Source: Candidatus Saccharimonadota bacterium
GTDB taxonomy: Bacteria > Patescibacteriota > Gracilibacteria > BD1-5 > UBA6164
DNA: 32,000 bases
Direction of reading: 5' to 3'
Assembly (NCBI GenBank): GCA_965227835.1
Contig: OZ245768.1
Span: forward strand, 780,001 to 812,000
Numbering within the stretch: position 1 is the stretch's first letter; the number at the start of each line of letters is the position of its first letter. Both the position numbers and the translations under genes were made by a program. The notes beneath the pieces are model-generated. The model saw only the letters and a list, made by a program, of their open reading frames with translations. It had not been told where the DNA came from and did no database searches. This document shows positions 1 through 31,390 of this stretch, piece by piece.

Positions 1-642
1 GAATGAATTATTTTGGTGAGATAATTGATTGAAGGATGATTTTAAACGAATATGGGAAGATTGCTGAAAAAGAGATTTTAAAAACACCATATATAAGAGA
101 AGAAATAAAAATTGATGAATTTATTATAATGCCAAATCATTTACATTTGATTGTTGTGATTGAAAATGGGGTAAATTTTGGGAATGTGGGGAATGACGGA
201 AATATATCCAATGTGGGGAATGTTTCAAACATGGGGAATGCGGGAAATGTATCCACCGTGAAAAATGTATCCACCATGCCAACCGTAGAACACAGGCCTG
301 CGTTCCCTACGGTTGGGACGTTCATCACGGTTGGGACGTTCACCACGGTTGGAACGTTCACCACAATCATCACAATCCCCCAATTCAATACAAAAAAATT
401 ACCAACAACAAAACCATTACACAAAAAACAAATTATCAAACACAATACAAAGAATAAAATCACAAATAACATTAAACATAAGAAAACAATTAAATGATTT
501 TACATTTAAATGGCAAAAATCATTCTTTGATAAAATTATACGAACAAAAGATCAATTAAATAAAACAAGAAAATACATTATAAACAATCCTTTAAAATGG
601 GAATTTGATGAGAATAACCACAAAAAAAGACCCTCTAATTAG
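1..642 (+). pseudogene. RAYT / IS200-like (Y1 HUH, COG1943-type) transposase-like gene. It is cut at the 5' end by the window edge and needs a +1 frame change.
   Basis: The frame starting at nt 3 reads NYFGEIIDG(TGA)RMILNEYGKIAEKEILKTPYIREEIKIDEFIIMPNHLHLIVVIENG, which contains the HUH motif HLH. The C-terminal family motif FKWQKSFFDKIIRTKDQLNKTRKYIINNPLKWEFDENN lies in the +1 frame and ends at TAG 640-642. That frame is open only from nt 289, so the shift falls between 289 and about 400, possibly at the A7 run near 395-401. The expected catalytic Tyr position (WQxxxY) reads FF. Confidence 0.6.
309..362 (+). repeat. 18-bp tandem repeat, 3 copies (acggttgggacgttca[t/c]c), in the GC-rich variable linker of the RAYT-like gene
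   Basis: The copies are at 309-326, 327-344 and 345-362, differing by 1-2 nt. Upstream, 177-280 also carries the reiterated motifs atgtggggaatg and aaatgtatccacc. Confidence 0.9.
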
Positions 643-5617: not shown

Positions 5618-6109
5618 TTAGGGGAATAACTGAAAAACGAAGTTTTTATAGGCTATTTCCCTTTCTGGAGAAGGTTGGTTGCTATAAATGAATTGATATT
5701 GTAAAAATGAAGGCATACTCTTATGGTTGCTTCTAGTAATTTCAAACAAATTACCAGAACTTGTTTCAGGAAGTGTAAAGGTTTTTTCAGGGAAATTTTG
5801 ATGATTTATTATTATATCCATTGAAAAAAAATTTACTTCACAACTATTAATAATATATCCTTTATAAACAAAACCACCATCCAAAGTTTCTTCGTATTCA
5901 AATATAATACAGTTAACTCCTGTCTCTATGTCTACGAAATGCCATTCTTTGACAGAACAAGGATTATTAGAATTCTCTATATCAACACAAATGGTTCCTT
6001 CAGAAACATCTCTAAATGCTTCATATGAAATATTCTGCTCTGAAGCAGATAATACAAACGATAGAGACAAAGAAATGATTGAAAGAACAACAGATGTAAA
6101 AATTTTCAT
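5618..6109 (-). CDS. Secreted four-cysteine protein, paralog 1 of a three-member family (function unknown)
   Basis: Intact 163-aa ORF with no TGA. It has the signal peptide MKIFTSVVLSIISLSLSFVLSAS/EQ, an AGGAG Shine-Dalgarno site 7 nt upstream, and the conserved motifs F.DIETG.NC and LFEI.RSN shared with 6236-6808 and 8400-8915. Confidence 0.8.
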   Translation of the reverse strand: MKIFTSVVLSIISLSLSFVLSASEQNISYEAFRDVSEGTICVDIENSNNPCSVKEWHFVDIETGVNCIIFEYEETLDGGFVYKGYIINSCEVNFFSMDIIINHQNFPEKTFTLPETSSGNLFEITRSNHKSMPSFLQYQFIYSNQPSPEREIAYKNFVFQLFP

Positions 6110-6235: not shown

Positions 6236-6808
6236 TTATAAATTACAACTCTTTTTAAAATCAAAGCCCGTGCATTTTGCACGGGCTTTTAGAAAATTTA
6301 ATCAAATTTGTTCATAGAGGTTATTTTCTTCTACATCAAAAAGAATTTTTTCATAATCATCAAGTTCACTTGGAGAGGATTCATTGTAATAAAAAAATTC
6401 ATATAAAAGTATAGAATTTAAACCTCTAAAGTTAGATCTTTTAATTTCAAATAAACTATCAGAGCCTAATTCAGGAATTTTAAAAGTCTTTTTAGTCAAT
6501 TTTTGAGTAACAAGTTCATCTTTTTTTGTAATAGGTTTTTCACAACCATAAACATAATAATTATGAGTAAATATGTAATTTGATACAGTATCAATATTAA
6601 CTATTTTACAATTAAATCCTGTCTCTATATCTAAAAAAAGATATTTTTTACTATGGCATGAGGAAAGGTTTTTATCAAGAGAACAAATAATACTTTTTCC
6701 AGGAATTTCCCTAAATGCTTCATCTGAAATATTCTGCTCTGAAGCAGATAATCCAAAAGATAAAAACAAGGAAATGACCGAAAGAACAACAGATGTAAAA
6801 ATTTTCAT
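6236..6808 (-). CDS. Secreted four-cysteine protein, paralog 2. The position homologous to the stop is TGA, so under code 25 the ORF runs on to TAA 6236-6238.
   Basis: MKIFTSVVLSVISLFLSFGLSAS/EQNISDEAFREI... The first ~35 codons and ~110 nt upstream are near-identical to paralog 1 at the DNA level. The standard-code ORF is 6302-6808. The codon at 6302-6304 is TGA, after which 21 more sense codons cross the terminator hairpin. Confidence 0.7.
6263..6290. terminator. Intrinsic terminator hairpin, a copy of the 5584-5610 element
   Basis: aaagcccgtgcattttgcacgggctttt differs by 1 nt from the 5584 copy. It lies just downstream of the standard-code end of paralog 2. Confidence 0.75.
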
Positions 6809-6844: not shown

Positions 6845-6915
6845 CTCTTCAGATATCTGAAAAGTATAAGGATTATAATAATATAAATTTAAAAGTCAAA
6901 TAAAAATTTTGACTT
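6845..6915 (-). promoter_or_regulatory. Promoter, operator and 5'-UTR hairpin module of paralog 2
   Basis: -35 at 6894-6899, -10 at 6872-6877, inverted repeat at 6893-6915, UTR palindrome at 6845-6864. This duplicates 6146-6216. Confidence 0.65.
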
Positions 6916-7101: not shown

Positions 7102-8334
7102 ATGATTATATATCTTGTTGAAAAAAATCCGAAAGAATGGAAATCTAAAATTTCAGAAGATTTAAGGCATGACATTGTAAATATAACCTGAATTTTTAAT
7201 CAAGTCTACTATGGGTCTGCTATGAATAAAAAGAATTGAGAAATAACTGAAGAAGATAAAGAAAGAGTGGTTAATCTAGTTAGGGCATTAAAAGCTAGTA
7301 TAAATAATATATACATACTAAACTATTATATTGAAATATCCCAATGATACATTTCAGTTGGAACATATGAAAATAATTTAGTAAATTTATTTCATCCTTT
7401 AAAAGAAGGAGTTAATGAAAGTTGTGAAGTAGAAATAGAATCAAAATGAGATTTCCCTATTATAAGTAATTTTCCTTTTTCATATATTTATAATTTATTA
7501 AATAATATGATTAAAAATGCCTATAAGCATGGAGAAGCTAAAAAAGTAAAAATTATTTTTCATGTTTCTGAAAAAGAAACAAAAATAGAAATATCTGATA
7601 ATTGAAAATGAATAGATGAAAAAATTGTATGAGACATTTTTAAAAAATGATTTTCTGGAGGTTGAAGCACATGATTATGATTATCTTCTACCAGAGAAAT
7701 ATTAGATTTAATATGATGAAAAGTTGAAGTAGAAGCCAACTGATGAATAAACTGAATACTTCCCTACATACCAGAAATATCAAAAGATATATTAGAAATT
7801 AAGTCAGAAAAATATAAAAATTTAAACTGAAAAATATTAACAAAGAATAATAAAGAGGTTAATAGTTTAATTATAAAATCAATGGTAGAAAAAATATCTT
7901 GTGATCAGGAATACAAGAATGTTATTATCAATTTTTTTAATGATATTTTAGAAATTTGAACTTTAAATAATGTAATATTTTGTTTATATAGTATAATATT
8001 ATATATGATTGAAAAAAATGATAGAACAGAAAATAATGAAATTATTAGAGAAATTATTGAATATATTTTAGAGAACAGGTGAAAATACAATAAGATTAGA
8101 GAAAAATTATATTATATTATGCAAAAGTTAAACATTGATACTGATTTTGAACAATTTTATGAAGGTGATTATTTATATGACTTAATAATTAATAAACTTC
8201 AGAAAAAATATAATATAAATCTCCCATTTTCAATTCAAAAAATTACTAAAATTATAAATCAAGAGAGAAAAGAAAAAAAATGTAAGTGAGTAAAATTTAC
8301 TATCTTTATACCAAATAAATCTATATTTCATTAG
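7102..8334 (+). CDS. Soluble histidine-kinase-like protein (H-box + HATPase_c) with a C-terminal extension of about 190 aa. The N-terminus is uncertain.
   Basis: H-box-like SEDLRHDIVNITGIF; N-box NLLNNMIKNAYKHGEA; G1 ISDNG(TGA)KG(TGA)ID; G2 GFSGGGSTGLGLSSTREI, with many TGA=Gly codons. TAG at 8332-8334. The frame is open from 6931 and the upstream part looks coding, but there is no ATG, GTG or TTG before ATG 7102. No transmembrane segment is visible. Confidence 0.7.
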
Positions 8335-8399: not shown

Positions 8400-8915
8400 T
8401 TATTCTATATAATAAGTAAAAAATTTATTATAAGTATCTTGTTTTAAAAATACTCCTCCATAATAAAAAATTTGATACCGAATAACCATAGGTTCAGTAG
8501 GTATTCTTATTATTCCAAACCAATTATAATGGTTTCCTTCATGAAGAACAAACTCTTTTCCAGTTAAATCAGATGAAGATTCTATTGTAGGTAAATTTTG
8601 AAAATCTTGTCCACATTCTTTAATTTCATATTCATGAAGAGAATAATTTGTAATATCTACAGTCAAAGTTCTGTTATTTATAATACAGAAAAAACCAGTA
8701 TCAATATCATAAAACTTATAAATAGTATCTGTCAGTGTCTGACCACAGGGAACTTCTATTTTAAGATCCCCTATATTATCTTGAAAAGGACAAGCATATA
8801 TAATTTTACTTATTTCACTAAATTCCTTTGCAGTAGTGCTACTTACTTCAGTAAACATTTCTGCATATGAGCCAAAAGAATATAAAAGTAAAACAATAGA
8901 AACAAGAATTTTCAT
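8400..8915 (-). CDS. Secreted four-cysteine protein, paralog 3
   Basis: Intact 171-aa ORF with no TGA. Signal peptide MKILVSIVLLLYSFGSYA/EM. It shares the four Cys positions and the motifs YDIDTGFFCII and IRYQIFYYG with paralogs 1 and 2. Confidence 0.8.
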   Translation of the reverse strand: MKILVSIVLLLYSFGSYAEMFTEVSSTTAKEFSEISKIIYACPFQDNIGDLKIEVPCGQTLTDTIYKFYDIDTGFFCIINNRTLTVDITNYSLHEYEIKECGQDFQNLPTIESSSDLTGKEFVLHEGNHYNWFGIIRIPTEPMVIRYQIFYYGGVFLKQDTYNKFFTYYIE

Positions 8916-9060: not shown

Positions 9061-10253
9061 TACCTGAATTAAACCCCGAAGTGCAATTTTTTAAATGAAC
9101 TTAAAGAAGAAAATATAGCATTAAGAAATTTTTTATTTTTGAGATTATAAAAAATTTTGTTATAATTCCAAATACAACATTAAGATTGTGAAAAGTGTGC
9201 TTGATTAGGGGAAATAAATCAAAGTATTTCTCTAGGAGTATTTGCTAATATATCGCAAATACTTTTTATTTTTTCATCACTTACATAATCAAATATAGTT
9301 CATTTAGGAAAAAATCTCCTGATAATCCTATTTAAATTCTCAATACTTCACTTCTGCCAAGAAGAATAAGGCTCACAAAAGTAAGTATCTATTCATATAT
9401 CATTTAATAAATAATGCTTAGCAAATTCCATTCAATTATCAAAAGTAACAGATTTAATTCATATATCATCTTTAACTCAAGCTATTAGATTAATTATATT
9501 TTCACTTGATTTATCTTTTATTTTAAAAATTTTAGGTAACCTAGTCTTTCTATCAACCAATGTAAGTATAGCTCATTTAAATCATTTTTTAGAAACAATT
9601 AAATCAGCTTCAATATGTCATTTTTCTTCTCTGTTATTTATTGTTTCAGGTCTATTTTTAATACTAACTCTATTTTTAATTTTCACTCTTTCTGTTTGTT
9701 GTTTTTTCTTTCTATAACCTTTATGTTTATATAATAATAGTTCTTTATATTTATTTCACATACCAGTTTCTAGCCAAGAATATATACTTGTATGGGAGAT
9801 ATGTTTCTTTTTATCTGTTTGAGTATTATTCCGTTTCTTAGCAATTGTTTTTGGGGACATTTGTATTTCTGTTATTGATAGTTGTTCTATTATGAAATTT
9901 TTCATATTAGTATTCATATTTATCTTCATTGATTGAGTTTTTGTTAACCATCGTCTTTGATATGATTTGATTTCTGCTTCTAGTGCTAAATATACTTTTT
10001 TATTGTTTCATCGTTTTTTTACTGAATTTCTGTATATCTCTCTGCTTATTGTTGATTCTGATCTTTTTAGTATTGATGCTATATCTTTTTTCTTTAATCA
10101 TTTATTTAAATGAAATTCAATACTTTCTCTCTCTTGGAATATTAATTGTCAGTACATATCTTATTATATTAGAAAATAATGTTATTACCCTACGGGGAAT
10201 ACTATATTTTCTTCTCTTTTAATTGCACTTCATTTCTTACTTTGGGTTAGGTA
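9061..10253 (-). mobile_element. IS30-family insertion sequence (about 1.19 kb) with imperfect terminal inverted repeats
   Basis: The left end tacctgaattaaaccccgaagtgcaatt (9061-9088) matches the reverse complement of the right end aattgcacttcatttcttactttgggttaggta (10221-10253). They share TACCT, AACCC and an exact GAAGTGCAATT core. The element encloses a DDE transposase gene. Confidence 0.75.
9180..10157 (-). CDS. IS30-family DDE transposase
   Basis: MYG(TGA)QLIFQERESIEFHLNKG(TGA)LKKKDIASILKRSESTISREIYRN...GHIEADLIV...LTLVDRKTRL...TFDNGMEFAKH...CEPYSSWQKGSIENLNRIIRRFFPKGT...ANTPREILGF. 325 aa, with about a dozen in-frame TGA. TAA at 9180-9182. Confidence 0.9.
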
Positions 10254-20788: not shown

Positions 20789-21994
20789 GGGACCTCTGCA
20801 ATATTGTTGAAAAGAACAAGAAAAAAGTGATTTTGAATAAAAATCACTTTTTTTGAAGAATATATAAGATAATTTCTATGAATTATGCCTTTTTTTAGGT
20901 ATAATTTCCAAATTTAGGCACAATTCACCTATTAGAAAGCTATATATACCTCCTTGCCAATAGTTCAAAATTATAAATAGCACAAGATAAAAACCAGTGC
21001 ATAGCATTCTTAACTAATCATCTATATCTTGTTTTATAATTTCAATATTTAGCCTTTAAAATAGAAAAAGGATGTTCTACTCTTGCCCTAATAGTAGATT
21101 TAATTCTATTTTGTTCTTTTTGATAAGAAGTCAACGGATTATTTCTAGATCATCTTTCATTGAACTCTCACTTAATTCATAACTCATCTAAAAATTTTAT
21201 TTTATCTTTACTTATATAGGCACTATCTCAATATGCCTCTTCACTCTCATCTCAAGTAATTAAAGTATCAGATAATTGTGAATCATGTATCTTAGCTGTC
21301 GTATATGTTGTATTCATTACAAAGTCTCCTCTCTTTGTTGTTTCAATATGAGCTTTATATCAATGATAACTTCTTCAATTCTTCTTTGTAAAACTAGCTT
21401 CCTTATCTCTTGTATTTTCTCATTTATTATTCTTTCTTCATTTTGGTGATTCTATTATAGTACCATCTTGAATAAATCACTTTTCTACTGTAAATCACAT
21501 TTCAGCTAAAATAAATTGAGTCATTGTAAATATAGTTTCCTGACTTCAGTTTTCTGATAATTCATTTCTAAATCTACATATTGTTGTTTCATCTGGTATA
21601 TCTTTAGATTCAGATATTCATAGAAACTTTTGAAAGCTATTTCTGTCTCTTATTTGATCTTCTATTTCCGGATCTGATAATCCATATAGTCATTGAAGAA
21701 ATAGTATTTTTAACATTTTTTGTATTTCCATTCTTGGTCTTCAAACTCATCAATCTGATATTTCTCTAGATAAATTAATTTTATTTGATATTGATTCCCA
21801 TGGGACTACTTTATCTAATTTTGTTAGAAACTTTTCTGTTCTTGTAATTCATAACTCATTTTGGAAATAATTCAAAAATGTTTGTTGTTCTTTAAATGGT
21901 GACATAATCATTAAAAAAAAATTAAAATATTTATCATATTTTAATCTTTTTATTATATTTTTGTAATTTAAATCTATCTTTTTGCAGAGGTCCC
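20789..21994 (-). mobile_element. IS5-family insertion sequence (1206 bp) with 13-bp perfect inverted repeats and a 4-bp TAGA target duplication
   Basis: GGGACCTCTGCAA at 20789-20801 matches the reverse complement of ttgcagaggtccc at 21982-21994. It is flanked by TAGA at 20785-20788 and 21995-21998. Confidence 0.85.
20940..21905 (-). CDS. IS5-family DDE transposase
   Basis: MSPFKEQQTFLNYF...GGVGRPRMEIQKMLKILFLQGLYGLSDPEIEDQIRDRNSFQKFLG...PDETTICRFRNEL...IQDGTIIESP...YHGYKAHI...TTAKIHDS...YGDSAYIS...RARVEHPFSILKAKYG.YKTRYRGLVKN. 321 aa, many TGA=Gly. Confidence 0.9.
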
Positions 21995-22828: not shown

Positions 22829-25435
22829 ATGATAAATGAAATACTTACAAAAATATTTGGAGATCCAAGCGAAAAAAAAGTAAGAATGTATGAGAGAAAA
22901 ATAGAAGAAATAAAAAAATCAGAAGAAAAATTCTCCAATTTTTCAAAAGATGATATAAAAAAGAAAACTCTAGAATTCAAACAAAAGTTTGAATGATTAA
23001 ATTTTGAAAACTGAGAAGATAAAGAAAAAATAACGGATATACTAGAAGAAATAAAATACGATGCCTTTGCTCTAGTAAAAACAGCATGTAAACTAATATA
23101 TGAGAAAGAATTTGAACTAAAAGAAGGAAAAAAAATTATATGGAATATGATACCCTATGATGTGCAATTGGTTTGAGCTCTAGCCATACACGAATGAAAT
23201 ATAGCTGAAATGAAAACCTGAGAATGAAAAACCCTAGTAGCAACAATGCCTGCTTATTTAAATTCACTAACTTGAAACCCAGTACATATAGTAACAGTCA
23301 ATGATTATTTAGCTAAAAGAGACTCTGAAGAAATGTGAATACTCTATGAAACTCTATGACTTACAGTATCTTTTGTAACTCATGATCAATCAAAACAAGA
23401 AAAAAAAGAAAGCTATAAAAAAGATATAGTGTATGCAACAAATAATGAACTTGGTTTTGATTATTTGAGGGATAATATGGTTATAAAAAAAGAAGACAAA
23501 ACCCAATCAAAACTATTTTTCGCAATAATAGATGAAGTTGATTCTATATTGATAGATGAAGCGAGAACACCTCTTATAATATCAATGCCCGATAATGAGC
23601 CTACAAGTAAATATATACAATTCGCACAAATAGCTAAAATGCTTGAAAAAACAAAAGATTATAAAATAGATGAGAAACAGAAAACAGCAACTCTTACAGA
23701 AGAATGAATACTTAAAATAGAAAAATTATTAAATGTAGAAAACATATATGTGTCTGAAAACTACAATGACCTACATCATATAGAAAATGCTATAAAAGCT
23801 CAATGAGTATACATAAAAGACAAAGACTATATAGTATCAAATAATGAAGTAAACATAGTAGATGAACATACTTGAAGGGTACTTTCTGGAAGAAGATATA
23901 GTGATTGATTACACCAAGCTATTGAAGCAAAAGAATCAGTAGATATAAAACAAGAATCAAAAACACTTGCAAGCATTACATTTCAAAATTATTTTAGAAT
24001 GTATCAAAAACTTTCTTGAATGACTGGTACAGCTAAAACAGAAGAAGAAGAATTTTATAAAGTATACTGACTTGAAACATTAGTTATTCCAACAAATAAA
24101 CCGACAATCCGTGAAGATAGAGATGATTTATTGTTTAAGAATGAAAAAGGTAAGTTTGATTATACAGTAAAACTTATAAAAGAAATTAATGAAACAGGTA
24201 GACCTGTGCTTGTATGAACTGTATCTGTGGATAAATCTGAATATATAAGTGATATTTTGATGAGAAATAAAGTGAGACACAATGTTTTAAATGCCAAATA
24301 TCACGAAAAAGAAGCTGAAATAATAAGAGAAGCTGGGCAAAAATGAGCTGTAACCATAGCTACAAATATGGCATGAAGATGAACAGATATAAAACTATGA
24401 GAAGGAGTAGCTAAGCTTTGATGATTATTTATAATAGGTAGCGAAAAACACGAAACAAGAAGAATAGACAATCAGTTAAGATGAAGAGCTGGTAGACAGT
24501 GAGATCCATGAACTACACAATTTTTGGTATCTCCAAGTGATGATATTATGAGAATATTTGGATGAGATAAAATGTTTTGATTATTCAATTCTCCATTTTT
24601 TTCAAGCTTACCGGATGATGAACCTTTACCTAGCTGACAAAGAATGCTTACAAGCAAGATAACAAGTGTTCAAAAACAAGTGGAATGACACAATTTTGAT
24701 ATTAGAAAACATGTGCTTGAATATGATGATGTGATAAATAAGCATAGAGATGTAATTTATTATAAAAGAAATAAGATAATTGATAGTGAGAATATTGATG
24801 AGGATGTAAAAGAAATGATAAATTCTCAAGTAAAAAAGCTTGTAATTTCGCAGTACAGCAAAGACTATAATTTGGATAAAGAGAAGCTAATAGAAAGAGT
24901 TAATCAGTTTTTGGAGTCAGATGTAATAACAGACAAAAAAGAAATATATGATATTTGTTCCATAGAAACTGGTGAAGATTCTGCAAAATACATATCTGAT
25001 ATAGCAATGAGAGAATTTGAAAAAATAAAAGATAAAGCTTCATGAGAAGAAGAATTTTTTGAATTAGAAAGAAAGATAGTTTTATCTTCTATTGATGAGT
25101 TATGGATGAGGCATATTGATTCTATGAGTAGGCTAAGGGAAGATGTGGCATTTGAATGATATGCCCAAAGACAGCCTTTGATAGTGTACAAAGAGAAGGC
25201 ATATATGAAATTTGAAGAAATGCTTTGAGAGTTGGAGTATAAGATTACAAAGATAATTTTTGCACTTGATAAAAGTGAGAATATAGAAAATATAAGCAGT
25301 AGAAAGGAATCTGTTTTTGATTCACAGTATATAAATGTATGAGTAGCCTATGAAAGTAATCCCTTATTTGCAAAACCTAGAAAATCACAAAATAGAAGAC
25401 CTCCTAGTAAAAAGAAGAATAAAATAAGAGTTTAG
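22829..25435 (+). CDS. secA: Preprotein translocase ATPase SecA
   Basis: [18 protein letters not shown]...[38 protein letters not shown]. The two Gly of the Walker A GEGKT are TGA at 23219 and 23225. Also [34 protein letters not shown] and TFQNYFRMY. 868 aa; TAG at 25433-25435. Confidence 0.95.
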
Positions 25436-25495
25436 AAGTCTTTATATTTAATTTGATTCTGGACATATTATAAAAACAAAAAAATAAAAAATTAC

Positions 25496-25523
25496 TTGAC
25501 AAATTTTAAAATAAAGTTATAAT
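25496..25523 (+). promoter_or_regulatory. Consensus sigma70-type promoter (TTGACA-N16-TATAAT) for small membrane cassette 1
   Basis: TTGACA at 25496-25501 and TATAAT at 25518-25523, followed by the GGAGG Shine-Dalgarno site and ATG 25586. Confidence 0.6.
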
Positions 25524-25585
25524 GTTCCACGTAACTTTTAAAGTTATCAAATTTAGTTCTTTTAAATTTAAAATGGAGGAAAATT

Positions 25586-25981
25586 ATGGATACTCTTATA
25601 ATTCTATTTCTTATTGCTTGCTTGATTGTACCTATTATTATATATGAAATTGTGAACCATTTTCAAAAAGGAGGAAAAGAGAAAGAAAATATAGTAGAAG
25701 AAAAAAAAGATATAACAAATGAGGTAATGGGGGAAGACTCTAACAGTAGTTTTCATCCTAGCATCTTAATTCCAATAGGTTTTGTATTAGTTCTGGTTGC
25801 ACTTATGATTGGAGCTACACAAGGTCCTACTGCGTCTGAAAAAGGAAAAATAGTGGTATATTTCATATTAGGATATTTTGGTTTTGCTATTGGTGCTGCT
25901 GTTATATTAACAACCATATTTTTTTTTATTGAAAAAATAACAAAAAAAAGGGGGAAAGAAAAGCAAGCTCAAACATGCTAG
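25586..25981 (+). CDS. Small three-TM membrane protein (131 aa) ending ...KQAQTC; cassette 1
   Basis: Intact ORF with no TGA (11 Gly, all GGN) and a strong GGAGG Shine-Dalgarno site. It shares about 40 nt of 5' flank and about 80 nt of 3' end and terminator with the cassette at 26241. Confidence 0.7.
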   Translation: MDTLIILFLIACLIVPIIIYEIVNHFQKGGKEKENIVEEKKDITNEVMGEDSNSSFHPSILIPIGFVLVLVALMIGATQGPTASEKGKIVVYFILGYFGFAIGAAVILTTIFFFIEKITKKRGKEKQAQTC

Positions 25982-26011
25982 AAAAAACTCTAGTCATATA
26001 GAGCTTCAATC

Positions 26012-26045
26012 AAAGAAGGACTTCCTGCAAAGGAAGTCCTTTTTC
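26012..26045. terminator. Intrinsic terminator (aaggacttcct-gcaa-aggaagtcctt + T-run); a copy recurs at 27192-27225
   Basis: An 11-bp stem followed by ttttctttt. Confidence 0.75.
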
Positions 26046-26240
26046 TTTTCTAAATTTATTTATTGAGTATCTACACCATATGCACAATATGTTATGAACT
26101 CACACATAACGGTATTTTTTGACTTTGTTCATAAATCATTATAATCCTGATTACAATCTTATTTAACTTAATTTAAAGTAAATATGAATATAAATATATC
26201 ATAAATTTAGTTCTTTATAAATTTAAAACAGGAGGAAATT

Positions 26241-26543
26241 ATGAAAGACAAAACATTTCGGAAAAAAGTTTGTAGGTATTTAGAATGTATTTTTAAAACT
26301 CAGACAGTAGGTGTAATGCCTGGTTTAGTAACAGTTTTACATATCTGTTACCTATACTTTGAAGGTCTAGATTTGTCTCTAGGAAGTAAGATGTTTGTTG
26401 GTTGTTTACTAACTATGTTTTGTGTTTGGATTACATATATTGTTCTAAATTGGATTTTAGAAGATATAAAAAAGTTAGTAAAAGAAGACGAAAAAAGGGA
26501 AGAACAGAATCTCTATCAAGAGATAAAAGCTCAAACATGCTAG
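26241..26543 (+). CDS. Small two-TM membrane protein (100 aa) ending ...IKAQTC; cassette 2
   Basis: Intact ORF with no TGA and a GGAGG Shine-Dalgarno site. The last codons and the following 30 nt (gctcaaacatgctagaaaaaactctagtcatatagagcttca) are identical to cassette 1. Confidence 0.7.
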   Translation: MKDKTFRKKVCRYLECIFKTQTVGVMPGLVTVLHICYLYFEGLDLSLGSKMFVGCLLTMFCVWITYIVLNWILEDIKKLVKEDEKREEQNLYQEIKAQTC

Positions 26544-26570
26544 AAAAAACTCTAGTCATATAGAGCTTCA

Positions 26571-27188
26571 GTAAATATCTACCAGTAGAACTGGTAGCTT
26601 TAAATGGAAGCCCCTAGAAGGGGCTAAAATAGTTTTTACCAGTTTAAATCTAACTGATTTCCATCAATGGTTTTATCCTTATGTTGCTGATGTTGAACAT
26701 AATTTTTTATCATATCCAAGTCAAGTCAAACTGTACTTACATAGTATCATCTACTCCAGAAATTCTTCGAGTACAGTCATTTCTTCTTACTATGTTTGTT
26801 ATGAAGTATTATTGCACTCTTTCATTTCAATCTTCACAGAATTTCTGCAACAGAGTATTTTGGAGATATCCTCAAAACGAGATGAACATGATCTATCGTT
26901 ATATTTCATTTTAATATCTCAAAATCATATCTCTTTGCAAGTTCATGAAATGTGTCTCGTATATCTTTTCTAACTGATTGAAAAAGTATTTTTTTTCGGT
27001 ACTTTGGTACCACCACTATGTGGTAAGTGCAGTCCCAATTCACATGGGACTGCTTTGCGTATTTGTGGGACATATCTTTAAAAAGTTATTCCCCTCCTAG
27101 GTGCTTCCTAGAAGATTATACACAACTACCGGAACGGTAAAACCTCCACTACTCGCACCAGCAGAGCTGGTGGTTTAGTGTTGGATTA
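26571..27188 (-). mobile_element. IS200/IS605-family (IS200-type, tnpA only) insertion sequence, about 618 bp
   Basis: The boundaries come from comparison with the uninterrupted paralogous site at 26001-26020: ...gagcttca|atcaaagaagg versus ...gagcttca|[IS]|attaaagaagg. Subterminal hairpins are at 26581-26597, 26609-26625 and 27156-27172. No target duplication is seen, as expected for this family. Confidence 0.8.
26636..27073 (-). CDS. tnpA: IS200-family Y1 (HUH) transposase TnpA
   Basis: MSHKYAKQSHVNWDCTYHIVVVPKYRKKIL...ITIDHVHLVLRISPKYSVAEILG.LKG.SAI...KNFWSRGYYVSTVGLD, with the HUH motif HVH and the catalytic-Tyr motif RGYY. 145 aa; TGA=Gly is needed at several codons. Confidence 0.92.
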
Positions 27189-27191
27189 ATT

Positions 27192-27225
27192 AAAGAAGGA
27201 CTTCCTACAAAGGGAGTCCTTTTTC
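27192..27225. terminator. Intrinsic terminator, a copy of 26012-26045; also serves the convergent gyrA
   Basis: aaagaaggacttcctacaaagggagtcctttttctt lies 17 nt from the gyrA stop. Confidence 0.7.
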
Positions 27226-27241
27226 TTGTTCAAAGATTTTT

Positions 27242-29755
<2,514 letters not shown>

Positions 29756-30058: not shown

Positions 30059-30086
30059 TTGACAATATTAATTTAATTAATATAAT
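30059..30086 (+). promoter_or_regulatory. Consensus sigma70-type promoter (TTGACA-N16-TATAAT) for the glycine-zipper gene
   Basis: TTGACA at 30059-30064 and TATAAT at 30081-30086. A small hairpin (cacata..tatgtg) and an AAGGAG Shine-Dalgarno site precede ATG 30141. Confidence 0.6.
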
Positions 30087-30140
30087 ACATATAGTGCACA
30101 TAAGTTTATGTGTATTTAGTCTACCAAAAAGGAGTAAATT

Positions 30141-30506
30141 ATGACTATATGTAAAAAAAGCCTAGCTATATCTGTCTTAGTAGCTATTCTATGCCATTTT
30201 CTATTCGCTTTACCTATAAGTTCCGAAGCACCAAAATTCTTCATATTTGTACATGATAATATTACAATACCTCTTTGGGTGTGTATAATTGGATGTGGAA
30301 TATTATTTGGGATTCCAGAAAAAAAATCTTCCTCAGATAATTTTAAATTGCTTCTGGGATTTATTCTTGGAGGAACCCTTGGATTTATTCTTGGAGGAAC
30401 CCTTGGATTTATTCTTGGAGGACCCCTTGGATTTATTCTTGGAGGAACCCTTGGATTTGTTCTTGGATTTATTCTTGGATGGTCTCTAGGAGAAAAATTT
30501 AATTAA
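30141..30506 (+). CDS. Small membrane protein (121 aa) with a signal/TM N-terminus and a tandem GFILGGTL glycine-zipper repeat
   Basis: MTICKKSLAISVLVAILCHFLFALPISSEA..., then (GFILGG[T/P]L)x4 followed by GFVL-GFIL-GWSL. It has 19 Gly codons and none is TGA. TAA at 30504-30506. Confidence 0.75.
   Translation: MTICKKSLAISVLVAILCHFLFALPISSEAPKFFIFVHDNITIPLWVCIIGCGILFGIPEKKSSSDNFKLLLGFILGGTLGFILGGTLGFILGGPLGFILGGTLGFVLGFILGWSLGEKFN
30357..30479 (+). repeat. 24-bp tandem repeat (ggatttattcttggaggaaccctt), 4 full copies plus degenerate 12-bp half units
   Basis: Units are at 30357, 30381, 30405 and 30429. They are in frame and encode the glycine zipper. The track ORF 30289-30489 is the out-of-frame reading of the same repeat. 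Confidence 0.9.
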
Positions 30507-30970: not shown

Positions 30971-31390
30971 ATGAATTATGTAAATGAACTTAAAAATTGG
31001 TTTGAAGAAAAAATAAAGATAAATGAAAAATATATAAACTTTGAGTATAGGTATAAAAAGTGAGATATATGGTATGCAAATTTATGAATAAATATATGAA
31101 ATGAATTTAATAAAGTTAGGCCTGTATTGGTATTAACAAATAATAAATTTTCAAGATGAAATAACATTATAATAATACCAATTACAAGTTTAAAATCTGA
31201 AAAAAGAATACTAAACACAGATATAATAATTGATACAAAATTTGGTAAAAGACAAAGATCAATTATGAGAATTAACCATTTGAAAGATATTTCTAAAAAA
31301 AGACTTATAAAGAAAGTATGAAGAATAGATGATGATACTCTAAATAGACTGGGTATAAAATTAAAGCTATTGTTTGATATTAGAGAATAA
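30971..31390 (+). CDS. PemK/MazF-family endoribonuclease toxin-like protein (139 aa); no adjacent antitoxin gene recognised
   Basis: ...YKKG(TGA)DIWYANLG(TGA)INIG(TGA)NEFNKVRPVLVLTNNKF...IIIIPITSLKSEKR...RQRSIMRINHLKDISKKRLIKKVG. This is the G-D-I-W...G.E....RPvlVl...v.PiTS pattern of the family. TAA at 31388-31390. Confidence 0.75.

Follow-up and report, generated by a model that had tools for sequence, protein, structure and literature searches.

In the 32-kb stretch of DNA analysed here (the window), two small genes on the plus strand, ORF1 (25586-25981) and ORF2 (26241-26543), occupy the convergent gap between secA and gyrA (27242-29755, minus strand). Each belongs to a unit with its own promoter region, and the two units share a 5' module and a 3' module and are separated by about 100-150 nt of unique DNA; an insertion sequence lies inside the second 3' module. 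The genome uses genetic code 25, in which TGA is read as glycine, and in 21 solid genes of the window TGA makes up 73% of the Gly codons. An earlier note on this DNA overlooked the use of code 25, so that the transposase gene of the insertion sequence stayed hidden: with six in-frame TGA codons it is invisible under the standard code. The note was right that ORF1 and ORF2 are both free of TGA, which accounts for none of their 16 Gly codons (0/11 in ORF1, 0/5 in ORF2). Across six orphan secreted or membrane ORFs of the window, all with strong promoters and Shine-Dalgarno (SD) sites, only one Gly codon in 59 is TGA, compared with 278 of 392 in the housekeeping genes. Four further orphan ORFs in the window, all TGA-poor, repeat the layout of the two units (consensus promoter, 5' hairpin, SD site, ORF and terminator), with different sequences each time. 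The ORF1 and ORF2 units belong to this local class of orphan genes that carry promoter, SD site and terminator and avoid TGA almost wholly.

When syntenic relatives were sought through SecA, the best match had 52% identity, and gyrA adjoined secA in none of 80 loci. An antisense code-25 ORF of 141 aa (25492-25917, minus strand) was rejected as spurious; it runs antisense to a biased ORF, its composition is odd and it lacks signals.

Shared flanks and unrelated cores

Unit 1 has a promoter at 25496-25523 (plus strand; TTGACA-16 nt-TATAAT) that agrees with the sigma-70 consensus at 12 of 12 positions and is one of just two perfect matches in the window. For unit 2 we infer a likely promoter from the sequence at 26119-26145 (plus strand; TTGACT-15 nt-TATAAT), which does not appear in a standard scan because its spacer is short. 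The promoter regions of the two units are non-homologous. On the minus strand, an 11/12 promoter-like site inside ORF1 (25666->25637) points across the start codon and SD site of that gene.

Downstream of these promoters the leaders become alike. Copy 1 of the 5' module (25532-25585, plus strand) consists of a 5'-proximal hairpin (GUAACUU-UUA-AAGUUAU, 25531-25547), two AAATTT palindromes and, 7 nt ahead of the start codon ATG, the Shine-Dalgarno sequence GGAGGA. Copy 2 (26164-26240, plus strand) has the same blocks, with insertions of 3 nt and 17 nt close to the 5' hairpin and small indels around the SD site. The 14-mer AAATTTAGTTCTTT occurs exactly at 25549 and 26203 and at no other place in the window. 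Among the 31 gene leaders of the window this likeness is peculiar to the ORF1/ORF2 pair: the ORF2 leader aligns locally to that of ORF1 with a score of 65, and to the leaders of the 29 other genes with scores of 12-31. A shared 5' flank of about 40 nt, as first described, is indeed present, but it is too short a description: gapped homology runs further upstream, to TAACT..TTTAAAGT at 25532 and 26164 (a score reached by 23 of 2000 shuffles), giving a leader homology of ~40-55 nt that reaches the predicted start of the mRNA. The folds of the two 5' UTRs are weak, no better than those of shuffled sequences (z = 0.28 and -0.14).

The 3' module is the more closely conserved of the two. Its first copy (25965-26061, plus strand) is an uninterrupted 97 nt made up of a hairpin, H1 (25965-26006), then an intrinsic terminator, the hairpin H2 (26013-26044), and a T-rich tail. 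In the second copy the first part (26527-26570, plus strand; H1 plus 2 nt) is the same as copy 1 at 44 of 44 nt, and the second part (27189-27241), with H2 and the tail, abuts the gyrA stop codon; H2 of this copy is a bidirectional terminator that serves gyrA as well. A block of 42 nt, GCTCAAACATGCTAGAAAAAACTCTAGTCATATAGAGCTTCA, has exactly two occurrences (25967-26008 and 26529-26570, 42/42 identical), and 100 shuffles produced none even when three mismatches were allowed. The terminator hairpins at 26012-26044 and 27192-27224 differ by one mismatch, with none expected by chance, and the extended 3' repeats have 90% identity over 58 nt (D1) and 83% over 54 nt (D2). Terminator calls were strong, 5 being found where 0.9 were expected. 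The module folds into a pair of hairpins (-39.1 kcal/mol, z = -6.3), and H1 folds as DNA too, on both strands; Rfam gave nothing near any gathering score. The 3' homology begins at AAGCTC, the foot of H1, and H1 takes in the last 4-5 codons together with the TAG stop. The stop codon is provided by the module, which has a second in-frame TAG three codons on and stops in two of three frames. The 5' block, the 3' block and the terminator hairpin all lie where the earlier note had placed them, and together they correspond to the predicted UTRs of two mRNAs, in an architecture that rests on consensus scans, with transcription start sites predicted near 25530 and 26152 and 3' ends predicted after H2.

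Both proteins end in AQTC, for which a role as a sorting or modification signal had been suggested. Our analysis weakens this suggestion. The peptide is the translation of the 5' arm of H1 in that reading frame, its four codons lie within the arm, and between the copies they are identical at every synonymous site, just as the non-coding remainder is. The position of these codons suggests that AQTC is probably a by-product of a module at the nucleotide level and not an independent peptide signal. The C-terminal tails are moreover predicted to be cytoplasmic from the hydropathy and charge pattern, ambiguously so in ORF2, where one transmembrane helix instead of two would put the tail outside the cell. 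Two copies give no covariation, and selection at the RNA level is inseparable in them from recent gene conversion or from a constraint on AQTC as a peptide.

The proteins between these flanks have little in common. ORF1 (131 aa) has hydrophobic helices at residues 1-27, 54-84 and 87-119 and a Lys-rich tail, which agrees with the three transmembrane segments counted before; ORF2 (100 aa) has a basic N-terminus and a Lys/Glu-rich tail, and its two reported segments are one strong (49-74) and one weaker (22-42). Single-sequence AlphaFold models are all-helical with low confidence (pLDDT 64 and 72), and in both the terminal transmembrane helix and the Lys/Glu-rich tail are modelled as one long helix. 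BLASTP gave no alignment of ORF1 with ORF2 at E<=100, the Smith-Waterman score was 29 compared with 25.9+-4.6 for shuffles, and the DNA cores scored below the shuffle mean. Directly beside the shared blocks the coding sequences were not significantly similar either: this holds for their first 60 nt and for the last 60 nt before the 3' block, where 687 of 3000 shuffles scored at least as high. We found no homologues of either protein in 5.8 billion proteins, none of ORF1 when HMMER was run in full against 1.84 billion representatives, no viral relatives by protein, and no record of either protein in an exact look-up on assembled contigs. Searches of Pfam, NCBIfam, PHROGs and PADLOC returned sub-threshold hydrophobic noise only (e.g. 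Yip1, 21.6 bits with a cut-off of 28.6) and no toxin or immunity domain. By these comparisons ORF1 and ORF2 are orphans and unrelated to each other. The likeness to polymorphic toxin/immunity loci that had been drawn finds no support in them, the two proteins having no common N-terminus and no such domain.

Might the two genes be old tandem paralogs, whose cores diverged under relaxed or diversifying selection and whose UTRs were kept alike by gene conversion, by selection or by both? The units are tandem and point the same way, a transmembrane helix followed by a Lys/Glu-rich tail closes both proteins, and small membrane proteins quickly lose detectable similarity. However, no residual similarity is left in the proteins, in the DNA or next to the blocks, the number of helices and the length differ, and the promoter regions are not homologous. 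Moreover, an identity of 44/44 nt that includes the loop and synonymous sites lies beside saturated cores, so that a very recent conversion would be needed even for paralogs. We consider this explanation improbable. It had been named, together with a lack of further cassettes, as what would refute the earlier reading. The idea of conserved ends around unrelated cores is supported: identity is ~96-100% in the 3' module and ~89% in the 5' module, with abrupt edges. Such sharp boundaries argue for mosaics instead of decayed paralogs, and on the sequence comparison the locus is a real mosaic, of small scale.

Hydrophobic proteins in tandem copies with conserved UTRs also recall type I toxin-antitoxin loci, in which the proteins would be toxins and the UTRs would be targeted by antisense or trans-acting antitoxin RNAs, and the antisense promoter-like site in ORF1 might be read in this way. 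However, ORF2 lacks such a site, no terminator follows the one in ORF1, and the proteins, with 100-131 aa and 2-3 helices, are far above the typical size of such toxins (usually < 60 aa). Neither Rfam nor PADLOC gave a match. We regard this as the least likely of all the explanations considered here.

An insertion sequence in the second 3' flank

The second 3' flank had been described as two separate pieces (26529-26570 and 27189-27225). The split is due to an IS200-family insertion: a 618-nt element at 26571-27188 (minus strand, with a boundary ambiguity of 1 nt) lies between H1 and H2 of copy 2, and when it is removed the flank halves rejoin into an uninterrupted 97-nt module. Its only gene, tnpA (26636-27073, minus strand), encodes a Y1 (HUH) transposase of 145 aa in which six of seven Gly codons are TGA. 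The product matches Pfam Y1_Tnp (E = 9.4e-35, 119.8 bits, cut-off 23) and NCBIfam transpos_IS200 (1.3e-39, 135.3 bits, cut-off 55); as a REP-associated transposase it reaches 35 bits, below the cut-off of 80. Both ends of the element have similar subterminal hairpins, CCAGCTCTGCTGG and CCAGTTCTACTGG (z = -3.6 and -3.4 for LE and RE). It has neither terminal inverted repeats nor a target-site duplication, and the flanks rejoin with an overlap of at most 1 nt. With its Y1 HUH TnpA and its subterminal hairpins, the element is by sequence a member of the IS200/IS605 family, whose features it shares also in being ~0.6 kb long, in carrying tnpA only and in using a short T-rich target: read on the top strand of the element, it sits 3' of TTAAT, and the insertion site of ISDra2 is TTGAT. 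The sole unusual trait is that tnpA is written in code 25. The empty site is predicted to read GAGCTTCAAT[T/C]AAAGAAGG.

It had also been stated that no integrase is present. Pfam, applied to 19 ORF products, likewise found no integrase or invertase in the window, but a transposase inside the flank itself had been missed. The same search found IS30-like and IS5-like transposases, and at 3-509 there is a fragment of a Y1-like ORF.

Another idea is that the 3' module is itself a small palindromic element, mobile or repeated (MITE-, REP- or RPE-like), which settled on separate occasions at the 3' ends of two unrelated genes. Each gene would thereby have gained a new C-terminus (AQTC-stop) as well as a terminator, and the 5' likeness would come from a second element or from common regulatory signals. 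In-frame insertion into genes is known for Rickettsia palindromic elements and Correia elements, and the module is a discrete unit of 97 nt that begins at a hairpin foot and contains stops in two of three frames. The IS200-family transposase and the Y1-like fragment in the region would fit as well. Yet both copies of the module lie at this one locus, the rest of the window contains no third, neither terminal inverted repeats nor target duplications border it, the tnpA scores as IS200 and not as REP-associated, and the shared 5' module is left unexplained. We think this origin quite unlikely, even more so than divergence from a tandem duplication.

Possible expression modules or exchangeable cassettes

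Our preferred explanation, to which we give a probability of roughly 0.5, is that the locus holds two adjacent autonomous, 'moron-like' units, in which unrelated orphan ORFs are embedded in common UTR expression modules and in which the second 3' flank was split by an IS. Each unit would comprise its own near-consensus sigma-70 promoter, one small helical membrane-protein ORF and a terminator. The common UTRs may act as expression and stability signals, with the 5' hairpin and SD protection on one side and protection by the 3' hairpin and termination on the other, and might also hold a common operator or a binding site for an sRNA or a protein. As the UTRs are common to both units, the two membrane proteins would be produced together. 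The recurrence of the same layout in the four other orphan ORFs supports the view that the flanks are expression modules. As to their origin, gradual divergence does not fit the sharp edges of homology, which suggest that the modules were copied onto, or kept around, different cores, possibly by recombination or gene conversion or by a duplication followed by replacement of the core. The intact IS200-family element would then have inserted between H1 and H2 of unit 2, leaving a 3' flank in three parts. Against this explanation we count the weak folds of the 5' UTRs, the 15-nt spacer in the promoter of unit 2 and the ambiguous topology of ORF2.

A more dynamic variant would make the locus a platform for cassette exchange, in which the modules serve as homology arms or recombination sites and cores are swapped in from a larger pool in the genome or the population. 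Swapping could then diversify membrane proteins, for example in immunity, receptor-blocking or surface functions. The abrupt boundaries and unrelated cores are as this idea predicts, and the modules, ~55 nt and 97 nt long, exceed the minimal length for RecA recombination. In addition, the 3' module is a hairpin-bounded unit directly after the ORF and in this respect formally attC-like, and an HUH transposase acting on single-stranded DNA lies at the foot of the H1 hairpin. However, there are two units only. The further cassettes bounded by these flanks that the earlier note had proposed to look for did not appear: neither flank has a third copy in the 32-kb window, and there were zero matches to a 25-mer of the 3' flank in GTDB representative genomes and JGI metagenomes or to a 21-mer in IMG/VR, collections that do not contain the source genome, and zero to a degenerate stem-only pattern in metagenomes and IMG/VR. 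No integrase or invertase accompanies the units, which differ from promoterless cassettes in that each has a promoter region of its own, not homologous to the other. Compared with the ends of the IS or with the rest of the window, the modules are no more similar than shuffles, and the IS has the look of an ordinary secondary insertion. Cassette exchange appears unlikely to us, though it comes before the other alternatives.

Considerably bolder, and in our opinion very unlikely, is the idea that ORF1 and ORF2 are members of a genome-wide set of 'code-agnostic' cassettes, exchangeable through fixed UTR modules and translatable in recoded and standard-code cells alike. Such cassettes would be free of TGA, depleted in ATA and AGA, and equipped with consensus sigma-70 promoters and SD sites that are mostly lacking in the organism's own genes. 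They might be exchanged by HUH enzymes that act on single-stranded DNA at the hairpin-bounded 3' site, and would stay translatable, for instance after transfer between the epibiont, its phages and its host.

Returning to the two units as carriers of common expression modules, the locus indicates that coding sequences on a bacterial chromosome can have whole 5' and 3' UTRs in common without being related, and that the conservation of a C-terminal peptide can be no more than the read-out of an RNA or DNA hairpin. Taken alone, the pair is a minor curiosity; it gains weight as a pointer to a class of TGA-poor genes. If the split in TGA usage were to hold genome-wide, it would point to a foreign or mobile gene pool fit for both codes in a recoded CPR bacterium, and it would bear on whether recoding isolates these organisms from gene flow. 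E. coli could serve directly as an expression host for functional tests of the genes, which are free of TGA.

Comparison with known systems

Variable surface-protein loci of Mycoplasma (vsp/vlp) resemble the locus in several ways: tandem genes with conserved leaders and divergent coding parts in a small, AT-rich, host-dependent genome. In ORF1 and ORF2, however, the conserved sequence breaks off at the ATG and does not return until 4-5 codons from the stop, and there is no shared signal peptide, no repeats, no site-specific recombinase and no phase-variation tract. Three secreted four-cysteine ORFs of the window do fit the vsp/vlp pattern. A paper on 'hypervariation' in a Gracilibacterium (PMC6851277) was set aside as irrelevant here; it concerns another genome (1.34-Mb) and a PTD-repeat gene.

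Cassettes of integrons, too, are unrelated and often orphan small ORFs, each followed by a conserved imperfect palindrome that starts directly at the ORF's end. The locus nevertheless differs from them, as the earlier note had also concluded. There is no IntI, the ends of the palindrome carry no RYYYAAC/GTTRRRY boxes (25956-26061), the palindrome overlaps the coding end and the stop codon, and the units, of which there are only two, have their own promoters and a unique spacer of 150 nt. The combination of a small protein, at least one transmembrane domain and a charged C-terminal tail, which is typical of holins, was found in both proteins but is generic to many membrane proteins; no endolysin or lysis cassette adjoins the units (their neighbours are secA, the IS200 tnpA and gyrA), and no holin family matched.

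In gene organisation the units resemble phage morons, which are single small ORFs with their own strong promoter and intrinsic terminator between unrelated essential genes, and whose product may be, as here, a small orphan membrane protein. In-frame TGA is avoided by ORF1 and ORF2 and likewise by the code-11-compatible phages whose predicted hosts are Gracilibacteria and Absconditabacteria (PMC10746230). The two units have promoters and terminators of their own by consensus scans, but they differ from morons in lying outside any recognisable prophage, between housekeeping neighbours, with no phage genes nearby and no PHROG matches above noise. To our knowledge, two units that share both UTRs are not a described feature of morons.

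The UTRs themselves can be compared with mRNA stabilisers such as the STAB-SD of Bacillus thuringiensis cryIIIA, the 3' 'positive retroregulator' hairpin of cry1A and the 5' hairpin of ompA. There is no sequence relationship, the 5' hairpins at our locus are weak, and a stabilising function is suggested here by position and folding. The arrangement is nonetheless the same, with a 5'-proximal hairpin and a strong SD-like element in the leader and stable hairpins at the 3' end. Modules of this kind act on RNA, are portable and work with unrelated coding sequences, and the flanks of ORF1 and ORF2 might be such modules.

Shared predicted transcript ends around unrelated cores

The two small membrane-protein genes, ORF1 (25586-25981, plus strand, 131 aa) and ORF2 (26241-26543, plus strand, 100 aa), lie between the convergent genes secA and gyrA in a window of 26% G+C that uses genetic code 25. 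Reading TGA as Gly yields long ORFs for SecA (22829-25435, plus), GyrA (27242-29755, minus) and about 20 other housekeeping genes, and TGA accounts for 318 of 438 Gly codons (73%) across 21 solid genes. Unit 1, the transcription unit of ORF1, has a perfect TTGACA-16-TATAAT promoter (25496-25523), one of just two 12/12 matches in the window; for unit 2 we read TTGACT-15-TATAAT (26119-26145) from the sequence. The surroundings of the hexamers and the spacers are non-homologous between the units. With gaps, leader homology reaches upstream to TAACT(TAA)TTTAAAGT at 25532 and 26164, almost to the predicted transcription starts, at a score that 23 of 2000 shuffles attain. Since the homology spans from a few bases past these predicted starts to the ATG, the common 5' block would be essentially 5' UTR. 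Its features are a small hairpin close to the 5' end, a pair of AAATTT palindromes spaced 15-16 nt apart, and GGAGGA. Although the alignment has gaps, the match is specific: no position other than 25549 and 26203 carries the 14-mer AAATTTAGTTCTTT exactly, and aligning the ORF2 leader with that of ORF1 scores 65, compared with 12-31 for the leaders of 29 further genes in the window. Within ORF1 we also noted an antisense 11/12 sigma-70 promoter-like site (25666 to 25637, minus strand) aimed across the start codon and Shine-Dalgarno (SD) site, with neither an ORF2 counterpart nor an obvious terminator.

At the other end, there are just two exact occurrences of the 42-mer GCTCAAACATGCTAGAAAAAACTCTAGTCATATAGAGCTTCA, at 25967-26008 and at 26529-26570, where chance predicts none even at 3 mismatches, and a terminator hairpin lies at two sites, 26012-26044 and 27192-27224. 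With a repeat finder, the two repeats grow to 58 nt (90% identity) and 54 nt (83% identity). Hence both shared flanks described in the earlier note, SD site and terminator included, are confirmed. The 3' homology sets in at AAGCTC (25965 and 26527), coinciding with the foot of hairpin H1 (AAGCUC...CUAGA-AAAAAC-UCUAG...GAGCUU), 3' of which follows H2, a G+C-rich intrinsic terminator of 12-14 bp. The folding energy of the entire module is -39.1 kcal/mol (z = -6.3), and H1 can form in DNA as well, whichever strand is taken. In copy 2, at ORF2, H2 is bidirectional and directly adjoins the gyrA stop codon. Because the codons GCU CAA ACA UGC and the UAG stop sit within H1, the C-terminal AQTC of both proteins is the translation of its 5' arm. 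AQTC had been proposed as a modification or sorting signal, and this is unsupported: all synonymous positions of its codons are identical between the ORFs, as is the non-coding remainder of the module, which is what a nucleotide-level module predicts, so that the identity lends a peptide signal no independent support.

Between these ends no similarity was found, as the earlier note had stated. BLASTP gave no alignment of the two proteins at E<=100, their Smith-Waterman score was 29 (shuffles 25.9+-4.6), and the DNA cores scored under the shuffle mean. The 60 coding nt directly upstream of the 3' block do not rise above shuffles (687/3000 attain the score) or control windows of other sequence (37/325), nor do the first 60 nt past the ATG rise above shuffles. 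Gradual divergence of full-length paralogs therefore fails to account for the pattern, with flanks about 89-100% identical abutting cores of random-level identity. So sharp a contrast would require that the modules were copied by recombination or conversion, or that a duplication was followed by core replacement. Old paralogs whose ends evolve in concert would retain near-identical flanks, but the cores align no better than shuffles, and we regard this as distinctly unlikely.

From hydropathy and charge, ORF1 is predicted to be N-out with three transmembrane helices and ORF2 N-in with two, provided that its weaker helix 22-42 spans the membrane; both C-terminal tails would be cytoplasmic. AlphaFold, run on single sequences, models both proteins as all-helical, at low confidence. 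In size and shape the products would suit holin-like, immunity-like or exclusion-like roles, though nothing specific points to any of these, and no family, phage or defence-system matches were found. It is most improbable that these are type I toxin-antitoxin-like loci.

An IS200 element in the second module

The ORF2 3' flank is in two pieces because a 618-nt insertion sequence (26571-27188, with 1-nt ambiguity) sits between them; the earlier note described a real feature accurately but missed this element. The gene on its minus strand contains six in-frame TGA codons and specifies a 145-aa transposase of the IS200/IS605 Y1 type (Pfam Y1_Tnp, E = 9.4e-35; NCBIfam transpos_IS200, 135 bits, cut-off 55) that falls short of the REP-associated model and whose motif FWSRGYYVSTVG is recovered only with TGA as Gly, not as Trp. 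Similar subterminal hairpins, CCAGCTCTGCTGG and CCAGTTCTACTGG, mark the two ends, and there is no target duplication. Once the element is excised in silico, the halves join into a continuous counterpart of the 97-nt module that follows ORF1. Read in the sense of the transposase gene, the sequence on the 5' side of the element is TTAAT (27189-27193); the matching uninterrupted site after ORF1 (26009-26013) is TTGAT, with a lone C/T difference at the insertion point. The element appears to be an ordinary secondary insertion, and the modules have no similarity to the IS ends. That the 3' module is itself a small mobile palindromic element we consider very unlikely.

IS30-like (HTH_38 + rve; 9180-10157, minus) and IS5/IS4-like (DDE_Tnp_1 + DUF772; 20940-21911, minus) transposase genes, both TGA-rich, bring three different IS families into 32 kb. 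The ORF at 3-509 (plus) has no Pfam match; its N-terminal ...MPNHLHLIVV... motif resembles a fragment of an HUH/Y1-transposase or RAYT-like protein, and low-complexity repeats (GNV and TVGTF) come after it.

Search for a cassette pool

Conserved ends with swapped cores had been taken to indicate cassette exchange by flanking homology. The mosaic nature stands; the exchange system is not supported. The 32-kb window holds no further copy of either module and, as noted earlier, encodes no integrase, nor an invertase. None turned up in GTDB representative genomes, JGI metagenomes or IMG/VR by exact 25-mer/21-mer scans, or in the metagenomes and IMG/VR by stem-only degenerate scans. Among 5.8 billion proteins ORF1 and ORF2 matched only themselves, each on a single 1,489,121-nt contig; a full HMMER pass with ORF1 over 1.84 billion representatives gave nothing credible, and no viral relatives were found for either. 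The lineage is sparsely sampled (best SecA match 52% identity) and the source genome is absent from the scanned DNA collections, so these negatives do not settle the genome-wide copy number. Cassette exchange is unsupported, and a true exchange platform seems unlikely. The best-supported reading, to which we give a probability of about one half, is two moron-like accessory transcription units whose portable UTR modules would serve both as common expression or stability signals, with AQTC a by-product of the nucleotide-level module and the IS200 element a later insertion.

A class of TGA-avoiding orphan ORFs

Four further ORFs resemble these units (5618-6109, 6236-6808 and 8400-8915, all minus; 30141-30506, plus). 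All six are small orphans that encode secreted or membrane proteins and have a strong SD. In the upstream regions of 31 window genes, most housekeeping genes have no SD at all; the motif occurs only at the TGA-poor orphans, the IS200 tnpA and a MazF-like gene. Consensus or near-consensus promoters precede four of the six (12/12 at 25496, for ORF1, and 30059; 11/12 at 6899 and 6200). A 5'-proximal hairpin folds stably at 6808, 6109 and 30141, is weaker at ORF1 and ORF2, and is visible in the 8400-8915 leader; downstream hairpin terminators are visible for all save 30141-30506. TGA provides 1 of 59 Gly codons in the six, compared with 278 of 392 for native genes (p = 3e-32). ATA (p = 4e-6) and AGA (p = 1e-5) are likewise depleted in the six, whose use of the other codon families cannot be told apart from that of native genes. 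The moderate interest of the locus comes chiefly from its tie to this TGA-avoiding, SD-bearing class in a recoded genome.

Several neighbours may be recorded here. The 121-aa membrane ORF behind the second perfect 12/12 promoter (30059-30506, plus) has tandem GFILGGTL repeats, 18 of 19 Gly codons as GGA and none as TGA, and a weak, sub-threshold Bax1-I match. The PemK/MazF-family toxin gene (30971-31390, plus; Pfam E = 7.7e-22) combines a strong SD with normal TGA usage. The three secreted four-cysteine proteins are true paralogs with leader and signal peptide in common, confined to the source contig; between their genes lies one for a protein of 410 aa that carries an ATPase domain of the histidine-kinase type (7102-8334, plus; HATPase_c, 3.3e-17).

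No phage-like genes adjoin the ORF1/ORF2 locus. TGA-avoiding, code-11-compatible phages are predicted to infect Gracilibacteria and Absconditabacteria (PMC10746230), and such phages might be one possible source of the TGA-poor class. Both ORFs end in an in-frame TAG pair, the second three codons on (TAG AAA AAA CTC TAG; 25979-25993 and 26541-26555), which recalls the clustered stop codons reported in code-11-compatible phages of code-25 hosts (PMC10746230).
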